DNA from: a virus
Taxonomy: Duplodnaviria > Heunggongvirae > Uroviricota > Caudoviricetes
Virus record (IMG/VR): IMGVR_UViG_2737471859_000003
DNA: 25,277 nt
Reading direction: 5' to 3' (one strand)
In this document: piece after piece, positions 5,281 through 24,221 of the stretch
Layout: every line of letters starts with the position of its first letter
How positions within the stretch are numbered: position 1 is the stretch's first letter
Notes under the pieces: model-generated
What the model saw: only the letters and a program-made list of their open reading frames with translations
Databases searched by the model: none
Told to the model about the DNA's origin: nothing
Made by a program: the position numbers and the translations under genes

Positions 5281-5518
5281 GTCTGGCCTCTCCGTCCTGA
5301 TTTCGCTGTTGATTTTCCACGCGGAGTTGCGCCAGCACCTGCTGCATATCCTGTACCCCGGTGCTGATGATATTCAGGTTGTCGACGGTGCTTTTCAGGG
5401 CGCTGGCCTGCGCTTCGTTTCTGGCGTTCTCCCGGCCCAGCGACCACGACAGACGCATGGATGTTCCCCATGCGGCAATCAGAAGGAAAGCGACGCCCAG
5501 CGTGGGCCAGAGCTTCAT
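5111..5518 (-). CDS. Inner-membrane spanin (i-spanin; Rz/LysB-like)
   Basis: ATG at 5518 overlaps the endolysin stop (ATGA). N-terminal TM helix (LWPTLGVAFLLIAAWG), then a charged, Q/R/E-rich, probably coiled-coil periplasmic domain; 135 aa. Confidence 0.75.
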   Translation of the reverse strand: MKLWPTLGVAFLLIAAWGTSMRLSWSLGRENARNEAQASALKSTVDNLNIISTGVQDMQQVLAQLRVENQQRNQDGEARREQLRNDIAKDECAHALPDARFTDRLRRHAERATASAVSPAYTADADHTGNTSPLP

Positions 5519-5907
5519 GCCGGATAGGCTCCGTGTGGTAACTGAAAATGCGGTCCGTCTTTCAGGGTCTTCCAGTCGCCGCCCCATTCCACCGGAATAT
5601 TCAGTTCCCGGCTGGCCTGTCTGAATGCTGCTGCGATTTTTTCGTACAGCGGCCATTCCCATGACACCTGGCTGCCGACATAAGCCACAACATCCACGGC
5701 ATGCCCCGTAAGGTGGCGGCTGTTCATGGTCTGGCTCTTACCCGTGGCCACCAGTTGCTTCTGGCGGTAACGGCTGCGCAACCCTTCGGTGATACCAAAA
5801 TCCACTTCCGAGATTTCCAGTGCCCGTCGGGTCACTTTCACCAGATCAGGATTTACGCCCTGCAAATTCTTTTCGCTCCGGCTGCTGAATTTAAATGTGT
5901 TGCTCAT
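5515..5907 (-). CDS. Endolysin, peptidase M15-type (zinc metallopeptidase; putative L-alanyl-D-glutamate endopeptidase), not the P2 gpK lysozyme type
   Basis: 130 aa; SRHLTGHAVDVV is the His/Asp zinc-binding signature of the LAS/M15 peptidase fold. Lies between holin and spanins; ATG overlaps the holin stop. Confidence 0.75.
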   Translation of the reverse strand: MSNTFKFSSRSEKNLQGVNPDLVKVTRRALEISEVDFGITEGLRSRYRQKQLVATGKSQTMNSRHLTGHAVDVVAYVGSQVSWEWPLYEKIAAAFRQASRELNIPVEWGGDWKTLKDGPHFQLPHGAYPA

Positions 5908-6227
5908 TCGTCCTTCTCCTTCACCCTGCGATTAAAGGCCGCAATAACCTTGTCGCGTGCTTTCTCTGCGCCCATAAAACCGATTGATGCGCCGATAAAC
6001 GTCACGGCATCTTCAGGAAACCCGAAGAAGCGCAACGACCCGGCCACGGCCATGGCAAGAACGCCGCACGCCAGCGATCCCGTTACGGTCTGAACCAGTG
6101 TTCGTCCGTCATAAAGACTCATCAGCGCGGAAATGCTGACTGCCGCGCCTACTGCATACACCGTTGGCAGGTGGTCAAAGAGCCACGCAATAACCTGCTC
6201 TGTGATCCCTGTTTGAATGGTGCTCAC
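5904..6227 (-). CDS. Holin (about three predicted TM segments, charged C-terminus)
   Basis: The track ORF 5904..6446 reads through gpX in another frame. The plausible start is GTG ~6227, 5 nt after GGGGGGAG, giving ~107 aa with three hydrophobic stretches and a KARDKVIAAFNRRVKEKDE tail. Start uncertain. Confidence 0.65.
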   Translation of the reverse strand: MSTIQTGITEQVIAWLFDHLPTVYAVGAAVSISALMSLYDGRTLVQTVTGSLACGVLAMAVAGSLRFFGFPEDAVTFIGASIGFMGAEKARDKVIAAFNRRVKEKDE

Positions 6228-6229
6228 TG

Positions 6230-6436
6230 CTACTCCCCCCACAACTGAATCATTTCTCGTTTCTTCTTCTCCGGCTCCGGCATCTCCACTTCCTGCCCGG
6301 CGTCCAGAAATACCTGTTGACAGAGTCCGGGGTTGGCATCCAGCACCTTTTCGGTGACGCCCTGCGTCGTGCCGTAGTACCGGAAACAGAGCGAATCCAC
6401 GGTGTCGCCTTCCAGTGCCTTCACTTTCATCAGCAC
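6230..6436 (-). CDS. X: Tail protein X, P2 gpX-like
   Basis: 68 aa (P2 gpX is 67 aa); lies between L and the lysis cassette as in P2. Confidence 0.8.
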   Translation of the reverse strand: MLMKVKALEGDTVDSLCFRYYGTTQGVTEKVLDANPGLCQQVFLDAGQEVEMPEPEKKKREMIQLWGE

Positions 6437-6933
6437 AACTCCGCAAAAATTCGCGGGCGGCGCAGAATGTCAGAGATGGCCCAGCTCACATCGCGCCACA
6501 AATCCGATGTCTGTATATCCAGTGCGTCCGCCCGGCGGTCGCCCTTATCCGTTGTGTCCGCATCGCGGTAACGCTCCAGAATCAGGGCGCGTGTGGCGGT
6601 ATAAACGGCATTGCGCCAGTGCCAGAGATTGACGCTTTCTCCGTTAATTACGGGTGCCGGAACATCGGCCAGCGTCTGATGGCCAGCCGCCTGTTGTTCC
6701 TGCTGCCACGCTTCCAGCTCGCGGGTAACGTGTGCCACGGCCCCGGTGGCGGTATGCAGCAGGCGGGAGGTGGTCACACGGCCCGGCAGTCGTATCGCCA
6801 GACGCAGCTCGCGCAGCACAATATCCGGCCAGAATGCACCCGCTGAAATGCGGGTATCACCATCATCGGTATCGGTGATGTCGTCCTCTGCGGGTCCGGG
6901 GTTGGTTCTGGCAACCATACTCATGGGGTTCAC
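6430..6933 (-). CDS. L: Head completion/stabilisation protein, P2 gpL-like
   Basis: 167 aa (P2 gpL ~169 aa) between M and X. Start is GTG 6933 per track, or ATG 6924 after AGGAG. Confidence 0.8.
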   Translation of the reverse strand: MNPMSMVARTNPGPAEDDITDTDDGDTRISAGAFWPDIVLRELRLAIRLPGRVTTSRLLHTATGAVAHVTRELEAWQQEQQAAGHQTLADVPAPVINGESVNLWHWRNAVYTATRALILERYRDADTTDKGDRRADALDIQTSDLWRDVSWAISDILRRPRIFAELC

Positions 6934-13843: not shown

Positions 13844-16069
13844 TTACGAACGAATAGGAATTGATGTTTGCGGTTGAATTGGCACGAGCACCTGATTATA
13901 AGTACGTAAAATTTCGTTATACAGGTCTTGGTGCTTTGATGCCTTAATGGTAATTATAAGAGCATACTTGATTTTTTCTGCCTTATGGCTGGCTATGCTT
14001 GCACCGGCCTCACGAGCGTTATAATGAATGTCAAATACAGGATTTTTTAGAGTTGAACCTAGCATGTTCTTCGAATTATGTAAGACGGTCTCCCATTTGC
14101 CCATGTCAGAACGTCGCTCACTTTCAGTTGAATATTTGGCCAGTTCAAAGAATCCCTTGGTTTCAGCATTTTGTTTTCCGTCTTTGATTTTTGAATCATT
14201 TGGCCGGAATGTCACTTCCAAACCAGCTTTTGTATAGGAAGCTGGGTCTTGTGGATCAGTGGTTGTTGCATAACAGAAAGTTGCCGCTAAGTTTATTCTA
14301 CCTTTCAAGCCACCTTCAGGTATTGGAAGAGGAGCGCGTAAGTATTTTCCTGGTTTCAATTCACCTTGGTAGACGATACGGGCAACACCATCAGGGCTGA
14401 CTATAATGTCGTTCAAGTCTTCAGGAAGTTTTCCCCAGCCAACTTCTGTACAAGGATGATCAAGCTGTTTTGACGCATGAATTAACAAAGCTTTGATTGC
14501 TAGTAGGCTCAAATCGTTCCCTAAAATTGCCCGAACACCAACAGCTGCTCGTAAGGCGTAAGGAGAGGCAAAGCTTGTTCCTAGCTGGGGTATGATTACA
14601 GGCTTCTTACCTTTACCTAAAACATGAAAGTACTCGTCTGTGTCACCACCAAACGCAACTAAATCCGGTTTCATCACGCCAGGACTTCTGCCTGGCCCAA
14701 TGGCGCTATATGGTGCTCGTTTCCATTCCGTATCATTAACTGTATCACAAGCACCAACAGCAAGAGCATTAACGCAATCGGCTGGTACTTGAATTCTTGC
14801 ATTACCAGACTTGCGATCCATTTCTCCATTGTTGCCAACAGCAACAGTCATTAATGTTTCACCATCACTTAACAAATCATCAATAACGGAAGTCCATGCA
14901 TGAACTTCCGTATCTTCAATTGGTAGGTCTGGACCTAAACTTAGATTGATAAACTGATACTGGCGAGACAACAATACCTCTTCAATAAAGCCCAAAGTTC
15001 GATATAGTTCCAGCGGATCTTCTTGGCAGGTCTTGTTGTCCAAAACTCTTAAGTTATCAATATAAGAGTATGGTCTTTTCGCTTCCGATTTATTACTTAT
15101 TGGTCCAAATAAAAAGGCTGAAGACACAGCTAAACCATGCTCTAAACCGTCTGGATCATCCTCTGCATGATCGTCCAAAACTCTATAGGATTTTAACCAT
15201 GGCGATATAGCGTGCTCTGATGGTAAACCACCATCAAGAATCGCAACTTTTATTTCTGAAGATACGGGGCCCTCAGCAGGCAATTTACACTGAGCTAAAG
15301 GACCGTAGTTCCTTTGTATTGGTCTAATCCCACGCAATCTTGGAACCGGTCTTATTACTCGTACAAATGTAAATTTCGCAAGCTTACTAATAGTAATTCT
15401 ATCGGCCTGGATTGGCACGAACCATAATGTACCAGCGGTAAAAGCTAATGAAGTATGTACTTTGATGTTCAAATTTGATGCAAACTGAACAAATTGTTGC
15501 TGAACCAAGTCTTGTTCATTATCTGGCAGTAAATGAACACCAACCTCAAAATACGAAGAATCCTGCTCACCAATGGTAATAATACGCTCTTCGGGTAAAT
15601 AGGCATCGAACCGTTCTATGCGTGCAAAATCAATCGCTTCGTCAGAAAACTCTTTGAGTCCTGACACCCAATGAGGTAACTCTTTGAAGGATTCTCTTTT
15701 ACCAGCAACAAACATTTGTGTCGTAGTTACTTCTGACACAGTAACTTTTCGCTTCCAGCTTTGAGGCGTAATTTTTACCGTCCTGCTGCCAATAGACGTT
15801 AACCCGGTAGACTTAAGCATTTTTGCAGGAAAAAAAGAGCGTGCAATATAGCTCGGATTCAACGTCAACTTAGCCACAGCATAATCATAAGGACATGCCT
15901 GACTGGGTAAATCATCAAAATTTTCTATAGTAGATGCAATTTGCGGCAATAACCGTTGTTTCGATTCGTAAAGAGAATAAACCTCAGCTTTTCCGGGCAC
16001 TCTTTTAGGACCAGGAATATCGCTGGTTAATAATTCGCCGCGTCCAATCAGAAAATTAGTTTTCGCCAT
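13844..16069 (-). CDS. Subtilisin-like (peptidase S8) serine protease, 741 aa, with N- and C-terminal extensions of unknown function; tentatively IetS-like
   Basis: Catalytic triad motifs in subtilase order: Asp in VAILDGG, His in EHGLAVSS, Ser in GTSFASP. AAGGAG Shine-Dalgarno 5 nt before the ATG. AT-rich codon usage unlike the phage backbone. Confidence 0.8.
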   Translation of the reverse strand: MAKTNFLIGRGELLTSDIPGPKRVPGKAEVYSLYESKQRLLPQIASTIENFDDLPSQACPYDYAVAKLTLNPSYIARSFFPAKMLKSTGLTSIGSRTVKITPQSWKRKVTVSEVTTTQMFVAGKRESFKELPHWVSGLKEFSDEAIDFARIERFDAYLPEERIITIGEQDSSYFEVGVHLLPDNEQDLVQQQFVQFASNLNIKVHTSLAFTAGTLWFVPIQADRITISKLAKFTFVRVIRPVPRLRGIRPIQRNYGPLAQCKLPAEGPVSSEIKVAILDGGLPSEHAISPWLKSYRVLDDHAEDDPDGLEHGLAVSSAFLFGPISNKSEAKRPYSYIDNLRVLDNKTCQEDPLELYRTLGFIEEVLLSRQYQFINLSLGPDLPIEDTEVHAWTSVIDDLLSDGETLMTVAVGNNGEMDRKSGNARIQVPADCVNALAVGACDTVNDTEWKRAPYSAIGPGRSPGVMKPDLVAFGGDTDEYFHVLGKGKKPVIIPQLGTSFASPYALRAAVGVRAILGNDLSLLAIKALLIHASKQLDHPCTEVGWGKLPEDLNDIIVSPDGVARIVYQGELKPGKYLRAPLPIPEGGLKGRINLAATFCYATTTDPQDPASYTKAGLEVTFRPNDSKIKDGKQNAETKGFFELAKYSTESERRSDMGKWETVLHNSKNMLGSTLKNPVFDIHYNAREAGASIASHKAEKIKYALIITIKASKHQDLYNEILRTYNQVLVPIQPQTSIPIRS

Positions 16070-16092: not shown

Positions 16093-17214
16093 TTACATTT
16101 TTTGACTGTATTTTCTAATTGTATCCCTACTGACTCCGGTTAAGTCTGATATGGCATGCTGGGATAATTTAGAATTTCTTTTTAGAGTAACTGCAATTTC
16201 TTTACGTTCATTCCTGTCTAATTCTGATAAACCATCTTTAATGAACGACCCAATCAACTCTTCATCTGAGGAAATACCTAAAGCGACCGAACGTCGGAAT
16301 TTGTTGATAGAACGCTCAATATTACTAAAAGATTCATTTTTGAACATAATAGCCAGTAGATCTATCCAACGTGCAAAAATCGCGTAGTCGGGACCTGAAA
16401 AGCGTTTAATTGCTTCTTTAATACTTTCGCTATCTGGCTTCTCAAAATTGAGCACTAAATCAAAACGTCTCCATAGTGCTGGATCAATCAACTCAGCGAA
16501 GTTAGTTGCAGCAAGTAACAAACTAGAAGACGGCCATTCGTCAACCTCCTGGAGTATTACGGTAACAAGTCTTTTTAATTCTCCAACATCAGAATCATCA
16601 CTTCTCTTTTTGGCGATTGAATCAATTTCATCTAACAGAAGAACGCACGGCCCTTTCTTCGCAAAATCTAGAGCTGCCCGAAGGTTATTTCCGCTTTTGC
16701 CCAGATAGCTGCTCATTACTGCCGTTAAATCAAGAACGTAAAAAGGAACCCCTAATTTCTGAGCTAACCAGCTTGCCGTAAGTGTTTTACCTACACCCGG
16801 AGGGCCAACAAAAATGGCAGAGCGTGTTGGTTGTAAGCCGAGAGTCTTGAGGCGATCGATGTGCTTCCGCTCAAGAATAATTTGATCCAGTGAGTCTTCT
16901 ATCTGACTGGACAGTAGAGGTTTGCTCACAATCTTTTCATTTGGTGCTTTAAGCAAGGTAAGCCTTGACTCCTCGTCCACAGGCATGGTTTGAGGCAGCG
17001 CTTGTTTTGGTGCGGTAACCTTACGCAGGCTTTGTGCAGGCTTTTGCGGTTTATTTCGTAGATAAAGATCAAGCTGCTCGGATAGAGCAGGCATAGTTTC
17101 CCGATATTTACGCACCAAGCGAGCGACATATAACCGAACGTCATCATACTGTTCAGTTATTACCAGTCTAACTAGTTGGGCTAAATCTGACTGAATACCA
17201 CCTAAGTCGCCCAT
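16093..17214 (-). CDS. Classical AAA+ ATPase, 373 aa; tentatively IetA-like
   Basis: Walker A GPPGVGKT, Walker B LLLDEID, sensor-1 / second-region-of-homology LLLAATNFAELIDPALWRRFD. The extreme C-terminus LSQHAISDLTGVSRDTIRKY looks like a helix-turn-helix. 23-nt gap to the protease gene suggests an operon. Confidence 0.8.
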   Translation of the reverse strand: MGDLGGIQSDLAQLVRLVITEQYDDVRLYVARLVRKYRETMPALSEQLDLYLRNKPQKPAQSLRKVTAPKQALPQTMPVDEESRLTLLKAPNEKIVSKPLLSSQIEDSLDQIILERKHIDRLKTLGLQPTRSAIFVGPPGVGKTLTASWLAQKLGVPFYVLDLTAVMSSYLGKSGNNLRAALDFAKKGPCVLLLDEIDSIAKKRSDDSDVGELKRLVTVILQEVDEWPSSSLLLAATNFAELIDPALWRRFDLVLNFEKPDSESIKEAIKRFSGPDYAIFARWIDLLAIMFKNESFSNIERSINKFRRSVALGISSDEELIGSFIKDGLSELDRNERKEIAVTLKRNSKLSQHAISDLTGVSRDTIRKYSQKM

Positions 17215-20178: not shown

Positions 20179-20564
20179 GGCTGGTATCCCGTCACGCGCT
20201 GCCACTCCTGCGAGAAGATGGCGGAAAGGCGGTTAAATTCAGCGGTGTATTCACTCAGCGAGGCACACCCGCCAGCAGTGCGATGCGCCAGCATTGCCGC
20301 AAATACGGAGGCCGGGGAGTCATAATACGCCAGCAGTGATTCGCCGTGTGGTGTCAGGCAGTGCAACGCCAGCCCGTGTGGTGTGAAATCCACGCGGTAG
20401 CAGTCGTCTACTGTGAAATAAAGGGTGTCCGCATTCTCCGGTTTTGTGGTGCGTGCTCTGTTGTCACGACCACGGATGTAGAGATCAAATAATCCCTGAA
20501 GAATGGGAGCCAGACGGGTGTCCTGTGTGCGCACCCATCTTGTGAAGTCATGAGCGTCAATCAT
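20175..20564 (-). CDS. Hypothetical early-operon protein (129 aa)
   Basis: ATG start; stop overlaps the A start codon, implying translational coupling; no family recognised. Confidence 0.55.
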   Translation of the reverse strand: MIDAHDFTRWVRTQDTRLAPILQGLFDLYIRGRDNRARTTKPENADTLYFTVDDCYRVDFTPHGLALHCLTPHGESLLAYYDSPASVFAAMLAHRTAGGCASLSEYTAEFNRLSAIFSQEWQRVTGYQP

Positions 20565-20636
20565 GCTGCAATTCTCTTTACTACAGGTGTGCGAAGGCCT
20601 CCCGCCGCAAGGTGCAGGAAAGGCCTGGAACAGGAA

Positions 20637-20867
20637 TTAATGGAGTTTGTTTTGCTGCTGAAAGAGCTGCTGAAGCTCGCGCAGATCATCCGCCAGATAG
20701 CTGAAAACAGCGGATGAATAGAGGTTTGAAAGTTCGCAGCTACGCTCATGCAGCATATTGATGTGCATGATTTTAGCGACGCGGAATGCGCGGGAAAGTC
20801 TGCGGTTGATTTCAGTCTGGATGTGACGACGCTCCGCGATAGCGCGGTGCTGTTTGCGGTTTGCCAT
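20637..20867 (-). CDS. Hypothetical small basic protein (76 aa)
   Basis: ATG at 20867 with an AGAGG upstream; the overlapping 206-aa track ORF in another frame is low-complexity and was rejected. Confidence 0.5.
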   Translation of the reverse strand: MANRKQHRAIAERRHIQTEINRRLSRAFRVAKIMHINMLHERSCELSNLYSSAVFSYLADDLRELQQLFQQQNKLH

Positions 20868-21192
20868 GGTGTTTGGCCTCTTCGTTTGTGAGTTTTTGGA
20901 TACTCACCAACCAGAGTTGAGAATCTCGGGGTGGCGAGACGTACGGGGTTCTCAACACCGGCAAACGAAGAAACCGGCCCGACCGAAGTCGGCCCCGTAC
21001 GCCCCACCATAATTCGTGTGCGAAAAAGACGTGGCAATACAGTACGCACAAAAAAACCGCTGGCGCGGTTGTGCGCTTCGTTTGTCAGCAGGTTGAGAAT
21101 CCCGGCACCCGTTTTATGAGGTGCAGCAGAAATGTAACCTGACTGATTGCGGCATGGCAAGCGGTTTTTTTGTGTGTGCATGCTCTGATTTC
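20868..21192. other. ~325-bp structured non-coding region in the early operon (candidate regulatory site or small RNA)
   Basis: GTTGAGAATCYCGG occurs at ~20916 and ~21092 as a direct repeat; the first copy pairs with GTTCTCAAC at ~20949; GTACGGGG and CCCCGTAC are inverted ~45 nt apart; an imperfect long hairpin around AACCGCTGGCGCGGTT lies at ~21045-21075 next to A/T runs. Confidence 0.4.
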
Positions 21193-21979: not shown

Positions 21980-22390
21980 CTATGCGTTAAATACGGTGTG
22001 TCGGGCGTCATCAATGAATGCAACTTGAGAGCGCTCTATCAGGCGGAGATTTGTCAGAAGCGCTGATTCCCTTATGGGGTGAGGAGTGATCAGGTATTTG
22101 TCCTGTAATCCGGCAATAATGGTGTATCGCTGTAGCTCCGAGCCAATTGTGTAAATAAGGCGTCCGGTGTTAGATAAATCCAGTCCGGTGACTGGTTGAG
22201 TTTTGAAAAGCGTAAGTTCCGCACCCTGTTCTTCGATGATTTTGGCGGCTTCTGCCGTGACTTTTGCGACTATCATTGTGTGGGTCGCGACGTCTATATG
22301 ATTATTTGCTACGGCTTTTTTCGCTACTTCGCTTTCCATCTTTGAAATTTCTTTCAGTGCTCTGATGATACCTTCTTCTTTTGCGTGCAT
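21980..22390 (-). CDS. Hypothetical protein (136 aa), AT-rich moron-like gene
   Basis: ATG at 22390 preceded by GGAGA; lower GC than neighbouring genes; followed by an AT-rich non-coding stretch. Confidence 0.55.
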   Translation of the reverse strand: MHAKEEGIIRALKEISKMESEVAKKAVANNHIDVATHTMIVAKVTAEAAKIIEEQGAELTLFKTQPVTGLDLSNTGRLIYTIGSELQRYTIIAGLQDKYLITPHPIRESALLTNLRLIERSQVAFIDDARHTVFNA

Positions 22391-22483
22391 TTTTGTATCT
22401 CCGTTATCTGCGTGTGCGAATACCTCCGTTAATACGGATGGTTTTCACGTTTTCTTATTTAATTTGATGTTTTATTTGTATCG

Positions 22484-22597
22484 TTATTCACCAGTGAAAA
22501 AACGTTCAATCTTTTTTACTGAATGAATAATTCGCATAATCCCAATGGCGCAGGCCACTGAAATAATCAGAGCAAGCCATGAAATAAATATACTCAT
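22484..22597 (-). CDS. Small hydrophobic peptide (~37 aa, single predicted TM helix), below the ORF-track length cut-off
   Basis: ATG at 22597..22595 overlaps the stop of the 80-aa gene (ATGA); by-eye translation MSIFISWLALIISVACAIGIMRIIHSVKKIERFFTGE. End coordinate approximate. Confidence 0.4.
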   Translation of the reverse strand: MSIFISWLALIISVACAIGIMRIIHSVKKIERFFTGE

Positions 22598-22836
22598 GCG
22601 ATATTCCCCAGCTTATACGGTTCAATATGTTCCCCGCATTCTGCGGCACAGATTAGCTCGGAAAGTTCGTTAAGTGCATCCAGATCATCAGCGTAAAAAG
22701 CCACGTCATACAGACTCCGGATTGCCCTGGTCAATGAGTCACGGGCTGCACGTTCAGCATGAGCGCCTGATGCACTTAAGCGAAAATAAAAACGCTCAAG
22801 TGCTTTGTTAATGAGAGTTTTATATTCTTTGCCCAT
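22594..22836 (-). CDS. Hypothetical protein (80 aa)
   Basis: ATG start with an AAGGG upstream. Confidence 0.5.
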   Translation of the reverse strand: MGKEYKTLINKALERFYFRLSASGAHAERAARDSLTRAIRSLYDVAFYADDLDALNELSELICAAECGEHIEPYKLGNIA

Positions 22837-22847
22837 CGCAACGCCCT

Positions 22848-23126
22848 TTAATCTGCTTTCTGAATTTCAGCTTCTGAATCCATACAAATAATTTCGATAT
22901 ATGGTTCATCGCCATTAACCTGACGTGCCTTTTCAGCTTCGCTAATGATTTCTCGCACGGTCTGGTACGGAAGCTCCACAGTCAAGCGCGTACCGTTCAG
23001 ATAAACGTAAGTAGCTGCGTTTTTTTCGGATGGAACAACTCCGTCAATGGCTGATGCGCGTAATAACAGTTCACCGCGAAAATCAATAAAACGGATAAAT
23101 ACACCTTGTGCATGCTCTTTGGTCAT
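22848..23126 (-). CDS. Hypothetical protein (~92 aa)
   Basis: Track ORF 22848..23186 begins with TTG; the first ATG is at 23126 after AGGTG, clear of the upstream gene stop at 23137. Confidence 0.5.
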   Translation of the reverse strand: MTKEHAQGVFIRFIDFRGELLLRASAIDGVVPSEKNAATYVYLNGTRLTVELPYQTVREIISEAEKARQVNGDEPYIEIICMDSEAEIQKAD

Positions 23127-23136
23127 AAAGCACCTG

Positions 23137-23478
23137 TTATAAATCAGCCTGTTTAATAAAACTTTGCCCGCGAAGCAGACGATCAACCGTGCGTAGTGCT
23201 TCGTATAATGTGAAATCCTGCCCGAACTGATTGTCGCCGCAGCTCAATGCAAAAATGCGGTTTCCGGTAAACGGATTGCGTGGACATTTGCGGACCACGA
23301 TTCCAGCTTTCTCAATCAGCCAGGCATGCTCGCCGATTTGTTTTACTGGGTAGCCATCCGGCGTTGCGTGTGTATCACTCAGGCTGTAGCGGATGTTGCT
23401 GCGTGATGCGCTGGTAGCGAAACGGTTAGCGTGGCGTTCAGCACCATTACGAAAGCGTGAATTACGTTGCTGTTTCAT
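23137..23478 (-). CDS. Hypothetical early protein (113 aa)
   Basis: ATG at 23478 preceded by GGGAG; first gene after cox. Confidence 0.5.
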   Translation of the reverse strand: MKQQRNSRFRNGAERHANRFATSASRSNIRYSLSDTHATPDGYPVKQIGEHAWLIEKAGIVVRKCPRNPFTGNRIFALSCGDNQFGQDFTLYEALRTVDRLLRGQSFIKQADL

Positions 23479-23496: not shown

Positions 23497-23823
23497 TCAT
23501 GCAGCAAAATTAAGAAAGCCTAATCCCAAATCTTCCGCCAGCTTCTTAGCTTTATTAAGCCAGTGGTTGCGCCAATCTTTACGCTCAGGAGGAAGCTGTT
23601 TCGTTGCGTCATAGACCATTTCGAGCCACTCGTTCCATAAGATGAGGAGGCGGCGTGAACTTCCTTCCTCGCCTAAAACTTCACGCTCAGTAGCCAGAGG
23701 GATGAGCCGACGTTCCACCAACTTTCTTACGGCTGATTCGGTCTTGCCCGTGCGGCGGGCAAATTCATCGACGGTGATGGGGTCTGGGATCTTAAACAAT
23801 GCCCTCAATAGTTCTTCATTCAT
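23497..23823 (-). CDS. cox: Cox-like excisionase / early transcriptional regulator
   Basis: ATG at 23823 (MNEELLRALFKIPDPITVDEFARRTGKTESAVRKLVERRLIP...) after GGGAGA; HTH-like N-terminus and W-rich C-terminus reminiscent of P2 Cox; divergent from C as in P2. Confidence 0.7.
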   Translation of the reverse strand: MNEELLRALFKIPDPITVDEFARRTGKTESAVRKLVERRLIPLATEREVLGEEGSSRRLLILWNEWLEMVYDATKQLPPERKDWRNHWLNKAKKLAEDLGLGFLNFAA

Positions 23824-23918
23824 GTGATAATCTCCCTGTTTGGGGTATTTCTTGCGACGGATGCCCCAAATCAAACTCATTTGTATAAACATTAATACAG
23901 ACGTTGGAGAATTGCAAC
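23824..23918. promoter_or_regulatory. Immunity switch region: divergent early (Pe) and repressor (Pc) promoters with putative operators
   Basis: 95-bp gap between divergent cox and C. Contains inverted repeat TTTGGGG...CCCCAAA with arms ~18 nt apart. Confidence 0.6.
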
Positions 23919-24221
23919 ATGCGTATGACTATTGGAGAGCGCATAAAAATCATGCGTGAAAGCGAGAGACTTACTAGCCTCCCGGATACAGCAAAAATGC
24001 TTGGTTTAAACCGTGATGCTCTGTGGAGATATGAAAGCGGTAAAACTATCCCTAATGCTGAAGTAATTGAGCAAATACTAAACAACCCCAGATTTGAGAA
24101 ATATGCGTTGTGGTTTATGACTGGAAAAATTGCGCCTGAATCCGGGCAGATAGCTCCGGCTCTCGCACACTATGGGCAAGAGCCAACGGACTTACCCCCA
24201 TCCGAAAGGAAAATTGGTTAA
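23919..24221 (+). CDS. C: Immunity repressor, P2 C-like
   Basis: ATG at 23919, 8 nt after GGAGA. YALWFMTGKIAPESGQIAPALAHYGQE closely matches P2 C (YTLWFMTNQIAPESGQIAPALAHFGQN) as I recall it. Confidence 0.85.
   Translation: MRMTIGERIKIMRESERLTSLPDTAKMLGLNRDALWRYESGKTIPNAEVIEQILNNPRFEKYALWFMTGKIAPESGQIAPALAHYGQEPTDLPPSERKIG

Follow-up and report, generated by a model that had tools for sequence, protein, structure and literature searches.

The open reading frame (ORF) at positions 22484–22597 on the minus strand of the window, which is the whole stretch of 25,277 nucleotides analysed here, very probably encodes a real, translated small membrane protein of a prophage early operon. The best explanation of the observations as a whole, which we hold with a probability of about 0.5, is a genuine 37-residue inner-membrane protein acting as an early lytic effector. 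The more specific proposal that the protein exerts its effect on a host target is tentative and somewhat doubtful. Since an ORF of 37 codons alone is not beyond chance, the significance of the gene rests on its conservation. Judged from the substitutions found among its relatives, the amino acid sequence of the peptide is under purifying selection.

Coding region and its position in the early operon

According to sequence comparisons, the window is a P88-like prophage of Escherichia coli (Xuanwuvirus, Peduoviridae, P2 family). A region of 601 nt was found with 100% identity in several E. coli chromosomes and with 95–98% identity in most related phage records (P88, P884B11, vB_EcoM-569R5, Citrobacter phage Shae_phiSM and others); the identity to phage Chuche was 90%. 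The following features define the peptide gene and its surroundings:

23904–24221, plus strand: C-type helix-turn-helix immunity repressor, divergent from cox (Pfam, PHROG; annotation of the P2/186 switch)
23497–23823, minus strand: Cox-family gene, the first gene of the early lytic operon (annotation, Pfam, PHROG)
23137–23478, minus strand: 113-aa DUF4761 early gene of the same operon (Pfam)
22848–23126, minus strand: 92-aa early gene (phrog_3800) of the same operon (PHROG)
22594–22836, minus strand: 80-aa DUF4754 (PF15946) gene, the coupled upstream partner (Pfam E=2.8e-54)
22604–22609, minus strand: weak Shine-Dalgarno-like GGGGAA, 6 nt 5' of the peptide ATG, within the DUF4754 coding sequence
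22594–22597, minus strand: ATGA start/stop overlap of the DUF4754 and peptide genes, indicative of translational coupling
22484–22597, minus strand: predicted coding sequence (including TAA) of the 37-aa small membrane protein, orthologue of P88 gp07 and WP_000021648.1 (conservation, selection, transmembrane helix)

The peptide ORF extends from the ATG at 22597 to a TAA (codons ATG AGT ATA ... GGT GAA TAA) and specifies the sequence MSIFISWLALIISVACAIGIMRIIHSVKKIERFFTGE. Its start codon (22597–22595) shares two bases with the TGA (22596–22594) of the 80-aa gene, so the overlap described in the sequence-only reading was confirmed, as was the location of the gene in a prophage early region, namely the early operon of the P88-like prophage. 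The Shine-Dalgarno-like sequence before the peptide is GGGGAA or GGGAAA in the main lineage, GGGAG in three further loci (L088-90) and GAGGAG, a good Shine-Dalgarno sequence, in the most distant lineage (L095). Overlaps of the ATGA type are common and generic in phage operons and are no proof of functional linkage.

The genes on the minus strand are arranged in the order cox, DUF4761, 92-aa gene, DUF4754 and the 37-aa peptide, with gaps of 18, 10, 11 and −4 nt, and this first block thus reads as one translationally compact unit downstream of a P2-type switch. The integrase gene, like that of the C-type repressor, lies on the plus strand and is divergent from the early operon. In the early lytic operon, the peptide gene thus closes the tightly packed promoter-proximal block as its fifth cistron. 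That the block is driven by the early promoter is inferred from P2 and 186, and by the same analogy the C-type repressor would silence the early operon in a lysogen. A promoter scan of the region yielded three promoter-like sites against 4.0 expected by chance, none of them antisense within the peptide ORF. Beyond a gap of 93 nt, the minus strand continues with a 136-aa gene (phrog_9338), a 67-aa gene, a gene for a MarR-type winged helix-turn-helix protein, an Ead/Ea22-like gene, the C4/isrK motifs, a Tum-like gene and the replication gene A.

The product of the DUF4754 gene was modelled by AlphaFold2 as two helices (residues 4–48 and 52–66; pLDDT 88.8), and a PDB fold search with this model gave no match at E<1. 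Database entries with a 'long DUF4754' of 103–128 aa, which could be taken for natural fusions, are frameshifted read-throughs.

Annotation and distribution of the gene

The peptide gene had been considered unannotated when it was read from the sequence; this did not hold. PGAP annotates the identical CDS as a 'hypothetical protein' (WP_000021648.1) at the 100%-identical CFS3292 locus, and gp07 of Escherichia phage P88 (YP_009113050.1), labelled 'membrane protein', is 97% identical to the window peptide. The label in vB_EcoM-569R5 is 'putative membrane protein' and the names in UniProt include 'Prophage membrane protein'; the exact peptide sequence is present in a cluster of 183 members. With P88 gp07 and the WP_000021648 group (Xuanwuvirus early-operon proteins of 37–41 aa) the peptide shares sequence similarity as well as the position, with a 4-nt ATGA overlap, after a DUF4754-type gene. 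It is the same gene at the same position, for which these entries carry annotation labels only, and as a sequence feature it is therefore already in the databases.

The region occurs in approximately 1385 of 5426 complete E. coli genomes, so that about a quarter of them carry the peptide; O157:H7 and ST131 strains are among them. When 60 of the 1386 matching complete E. coli genome records were sampled at even spacing, a CDS was annotated at the peptide locus in 58, the other two being deletion remnants. A contig labelled as the Gram-positive Vagococcus sp. WN89Y (L004, NZ_JBQPOM010000071.1) also contains an early region of the E. coli P88-like kind with the peptide, at 98% identity, which is probably due to assembly contamination or mislabelling.

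Searches with the peptide in Pfam, PHROG, NCBIfam, PADLOC and PDB sequences gave no significant match; the best Pfam hit, YiaAB, was insignificant (E=0.058). Among 1.84 billion proteins clustered at 50% identity, six representatives were found, all of the same family as the peptide. They come from Escherichia and a few other Enterobacteriaceae; the family is thus narrow and much of its conservation is shallow. Cluster members of 28 and 34 aa are N-terminally shortened gene calls. In the literature, neither the peptide nor DUF4754 was found mentioned in any paper. By these searches, the peptide stands outside every described family and shows no homology to a characterised one, though annotated.

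Conservation and selection

The relatives of the peptide gene were collected as 93 loci from IMG/VR, GenBank phages and E. albertii and E. coli contigs, representing 34 distinct nucleotide versions. The ATGA overlap was present in 92 of the 92 loci of this set having an intact DUF4754 gene, and the peptide ORF was open through codon 33 in each of them. Among the related loci, 95 were usable, and each of them had an intact ATGA junction and intact codons 1–30. The one exception to the absence of disruptions in codons 1–30 is the record of phage 503458 (NC_049341.1; L091, 125-470), in which small indels interrupt the DUF4754 gene, the peptide ORF and also the replication gene. Because several indels are spread across neighbouring genes, this record was treated as low-quality sequence; the breaks look like the result of error-prone sequencing, not biology. 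Both the ORF and its ATGA junction were thus found to be kept in close and distant relatives.

The pattern of substitutions points to selection at the protein level. Synonymous changes made up 28 of the 52 distinct site variants, each counted once, where 24.5% would be expected under neutrality (binomial p=5e-6), and the variable sites in the 34 distinct versions were distributed over codon positions 1, 2 and 3 as 11, 5 and 20 (binomial p=0.005). The annotated frame had a pN/pS ratio of 0.216; the five alternative frames gave values from 0.29 to 1.47, with stops in 25–34 of the 34 sequences. All substitutions at peptide positions 3–21 were hydrophobic-for-hydrophobic, small-for-small or polar (S13A, A17T, I20T), and no replacement brought a charged residue or a proline into this segment. 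The synonymous diversity of the peptide ORF (pS 0.205) is not lower than that of DUF4754 (0.197), which speaks against the conservation being due to an RNA or DNA element that overlaps the ORF.

The strongest single datum for the peptide being a gene is, at the level of sequence, the most distant lineage (L095/P0067). Its peptide of 41 aa is 57% identical to that of the window and its upstream 80-aa protein is 31% identical to the window DUF4754, and the ATGA overlap is retained there together with the GAGGAG sequence mentioned above.

Predicted helix, topology and C-terminal variation

The short ORF was originally described as one strongly hydrophobic helix followed by a basic tail, and this description agrees with our calculations. 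For residues 3–21, the mean Kyte-Doolittle value is 2.55 and the simple Hessa insertion sum is −2.5 kcal/mol, i.e. this segment is hydrophobic enough for a transmembrane (TM) helix. The N-terminal flank consists of two uncharged residues (M-S), and the tail (residues 22–37) contains four K/R, one H and two E; its hydrophobic moment is high (1.64). A single-sequence AlphaFold2 model shows one helix over residues 2–34 (pLDDT 90). The hydrophobic moment of the TM helix is very low (0.30 vs 1.30 for TisB) and there is no polar pore-lining face; the hydropathy is comparable to that of HokB. By prediction, the peptide falls within the size and single-TM range of both type I membrane toxins (<60 aa) and small membrane regulators (<~50 aa).

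The peptide is predicted to be a single-pass inner-membrane protein with N-out/C-in orientation. According to the positive-inside rule, the two-residue uncharged N-terminus would face the periplasm and the basic amphipathic tail (RIIHSVKKIERFF) would be cytoplasmic. The positions invariant across all variants are M1, S6, W7, L10, I11, G19, I23, I24, K28, I30 and F34. A conserved helical face with the small residues S6, S13 and A17 seemed to be visible by eye; the helical periodicity of conservation was not significant in shuffle tests (p=0.20 for residues 2–36 and p=0.42 for the TM segment), which counts against claiming a specific binding interface on the peptide.

The C-terminal part, in which two homopolymer runs are found, is plastic:

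22497–22502, minus strand: T6 run (sense strand) in codons 32–34, the −1 frameshift site behind the 45-aa tail variants, including that of phage PhiR44_2
22512–22517, minus strand: A6 run (sense strand) in codons 27–29, the second frameshift site; the tails of two variants (P0064, P0065) start ...SVKRL

A −1 frameshift in the T6 or A6 run was found in eight IMG/VR loci, in several cluster representatives and in the viable phage PhiR44_2. It exchanges the last 4–9 residues of the peptide and yields a 45-aa form. In another viable phage, Chuche, a TAG at codon 31 shortens the peptide to 30 aa, and in one lineage the tail is lengthened to 41 aa with KRRK. As viable phages carry rewritten or truncated tails, the functional core would consist of the helix and the first juxtamembrane residues (VKKI). 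Either the phage can do without the last residues of the peptide, or it can dispense with the gene as a whole, whose homopolymers would then be its vulnerable sites; both readings fit an accessory function of a protein with such a core.

Gap and hairpin downstream of the gene

The AT-rich non-coding stretch that the sequence-only reading placed after the ORF was found as described, and it contains a conserved hairpin:

22391–22483, minus strand: A/T-rich intergenic gap of 93 nt which ends the conserved promoter-proximal block; variable cargo follows, with the next gene starting at 22390
22425–22438, minus strand: 5-bp GC-rich hairpin TCCGY-N4-RCGGA within the gap, ~45 nt past the peptide stop

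Across 18 distinct sequences, 98.9% of the cells of the hairpin stem were paired and the loop was variable. The closing pair switches between CG and UA in four sequences, probably as one event, and the hairpin is also conserved in the most distant lineage. On the sense strand it is not followed by a U-run; on the plus strand it is followed by TGGTTTTCAC (a T-tract). Its position matches that of tR1 in phage 186 and of the rho-independent terminator in P2. The hairpin may serve for RNA processing or mark a recombination joint, or it may be a terminator that is weak or degenerate. The homology among the relatives breaks just past the hairpin and the cargo differs there; the peptide gene is hence the last gene of the conserved promoter-proximal block.

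The first cargo gene in the window is the 136-aa gene (21980–22390, minus strand; phrog_9338, no Pfam), which belongs to the variable cargo and is absent from P88. In P88-type phages the hairpin is directly followed by the 67-aa gene, and their homology to the window starts near 22410. On the plus strand, a promoter-like TTGAAA-16-GATGAT (22342–22369) precedes the hairpin and T-tract (22425–22448) by ~55 nt, and the pair could give a short RNA antisense to the ribosome-binding site of the 136-aa gene. Since the region has fewer promoter-like sites than expected by chance, such an antisense sRNA is only a lead and is not claimed.

Possible role of the peptide

We propose that the peptide acts as an early lytic effector in the following way. 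Its transcription would start from the C-repressed early promoter and the peptide would consequently be made only after infection or induction. Ribosomes terminating on the DUF4754 gene would re-initiate at the overlapping ATG, aided by the weak Shine-Dalgarno sequence. Once inserted in the inner membrane, the helix (invariant S6, W7, L10, I11, G19, I23, I24 and K28) may dock on or perturb a host inner-membrane component, and the task of the peptide would be a non-essential one in host takeover or exclusion during early lytic growth, with an operon position like that of the 186 fil/dhr pair. A further, speculative and rather doubtful extension is that the peptide founds a new family of phage single-helix inhibitors of a host inner-membrane machine (the divisome, lipid II/envelope synthesis or a DNA-entry channel), maybe together with DUF4754; an inhibitor of this kind would explain why the peptide has stayed at 57% identity while its partner drifted to 31%.

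Several known systems resemble the peptide in part. In phage 186, which has the same P2-family early-operon arrangement, fil (blocking division) and dhr (blocking host replication) are annotated immediately before tR1, and in P2 orf78-B is followed by a terminator. The fil-dhr genes are small, non-essential and overlapping, and lie just before the first hairpin or terminator. The likeness of the peptide to the 186 Fil slot is an analogy of position only; Fil and Dhr, in contrast to the peptide, have no TM segments and are not homologous to it. A resemblance noticed by eye between IMRIIHSVKK of the peptide and IIRIVHFVIK at the C-terminus of 186 Fil was rejected: BLASTP produced no alignment, and hhalign against PF10893 (DUF2724) gave a probability of 0.4% with E=0.14. 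The Fil C-terminus is itself variable. Small TM proteins that target host envelope machines include LysM of levivirus M (acting on MurJ), Gp56 of SPO1 and SidA of Caulobacter. Each is described as a single TM helix protein of ~30–40 aa binding an essential inner-membrane protein, which is the kind of mechanism proposed here for the peptide, although they occur in other phage types and other genomic contexts.

Small membrane proteins which modulate larger membrane proteins are a described class (PMC12648545). Like the peptide, its members MgtS, MgrB, AcrZ and MgtR are shorter than 50 aa and have a single TM helix, which is conserved in a sequence-specific way and shortly flanked on both sides, whereas the peptide is phage-encoded, located in an early lytic operon and without sequence homology to them. 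The peptide belongs in kind with the small single-pass membrane proteins (PMC12648545) and with the small early host-takeover genes of P2-family phages.

The peptide might alternatively be a membrane-depolarising toxin similar to type I toxins (TisB, Hok, DinQ, Ldr), which would oligomerise, dissipate the proton motive force and halt host metabolism early. Its size, single TM helix and short charged C-terminal extension match those of type I membrane toxins (PMC12648545), i.e. the similar size and the order of hydrophobic helix and charged extension of Hok/Gef, TisB, DinQ, Ldr, Ibs and Fst; its hydropathy is near that of HokB, and the TM segment tolerates many conservative exchanges, as that of pore-formers often does. 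We nevertheless consider a toxin unlikely. The peptide matches none of the Hok, Ldr, TisB, Ibs or Fst Pfam families and is translationally coupled within a polycistronic operon instead of forming a stand-alone unit. The sequence search supported no antisense promoter or terminator and no Rfam sRNA (no Rfam motif matched within 22300–22900 at E<=0.4). With its start overlapping the preceding stop, the ORF has no independent, structured mRNA with a Shine-Dalgarno sequence sequestered in a long 5' UTR, and its synonymous sites show no extra constraint. The low hydrophobic moment of the helix speaks against an amphipathic pore, and depolarising its host ahead of replication would come at a cost for the phage. 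Another possible role is superinfection exclusion, in which the peptide would, like T4 Imm or HK97 gp15, block the entry of incoming phage DNA at the inner membrane in early lytic growth or in the lysogen; this overlaps with the early lytic effector proposed above. Small bitopic inner-membrane proteins are the usual DNA-entry blockers (T4 Imm, P22 SieA, HK97 gp15) and the form of the peptide is typical of them. T4 imm is an early lytic gene, so that early expression of the peptide fits exclusion, and a non-essential gene is compatible with it as well. The position in the early operon agrees with early-lytic and not with lysogenic timing: the operon, in which the gene lies downstream of cox, would be shut off by the C repressor, and the promoter scan singled out no promoter of the gene's own, which makes exclusion in the lysogen unlikely. 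As the peptide has neither a PADLOC match nor homology to known Sie proteins, we regard exclusion as quite improbable. A lysis regulator, a role which had been suggested for such peptides, is unlikely because the holin/endolysin cassette (holin PF05106 within 5904–6446, M15 endolysin 5515–5907) is situated >16 kb away in the late region; the peptide lies outside this cassette and matches no holin family in Pfam or PHROG.

The constant neighbourhood of DUF4754 suggests another possibility, namely that the peptide is an anchor or obligate subunit of this protein: coupling would ensure ~1:1 synthesis, and through the cytoplasmic amphipathic tail the soluble helical DUF4754 would be held at the inner membrane, where both would act as a pair. 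The adjacency of the two genes and their ATGA overlap are constant, even in the lineage where the partner is only 31% identical, no homologue of the peptide was found without the upstream 80-aa gene, and an amphipathic face is made up of I23, I24, I30 and F34, which are hydrophobic and invariant positions of the tail. The tail-mediated interaction is weakened, however, by the viable phages in which the tail past residues 30–33 is replaced or lost. The partner evolves much faster than the peptide, the overlap is of a generic type and the fold of DUF4754 gives no hint of function, so that we assign a low probability to the anchor. It is far less probable still that there is no functional protein at all, the ORF being open by chance or having a role in cis, as a translated leader for read-through of the hairpin and gap or as an overlapping DNA or RNA element. 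Such a role would be in keeping with the shortness of the ORF, its end ~45 nt before a conserved hairpin located where 186 and P2 have terminators, and the C-terminal frameshift and nonsense variants. Against it stand the frame-specific synonymous excess with conservative replacements only, the retention of 57% identity beside a neighbour which dropped to 31%, the freely varying synonymous sites and the undisrupted codons 1–30 in 95 loci.

If the early lytic effector has a target in the host membrane, a compact and easily synthesised inhibitor of 30–37 residues would be added to phage-derived tools, and the promoter-proximal early genes of Xuanwuvirus phages would gain a first function. Should there be no phenotype, the peptide is one more small accessory ORF. 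No current concept is challenged by the finding.

Other features of the window

A pair of anti-phage defence genes, ietAS, was found on the minus strand at 13844–16069 and 16093–17214, between replication gene A and the late genes, i.e. at a hotspot of the P2 old/tin type; PADLOC matched IetS, an S8 subtilase, at E=7e-52 and IetA, an AAA ATPase, at E=1e-77. Rfam detected a C4 antisense RNA (20927–21014, minus strand; 79 bits) and isrK (21050–21124, minus strand; 62 bits) just upstream of the Tum-like 'Derepression' gene (20637–20867). The 206-aa ORF at 20561–21181 that overlaps C4 and isrK is probably spurious.
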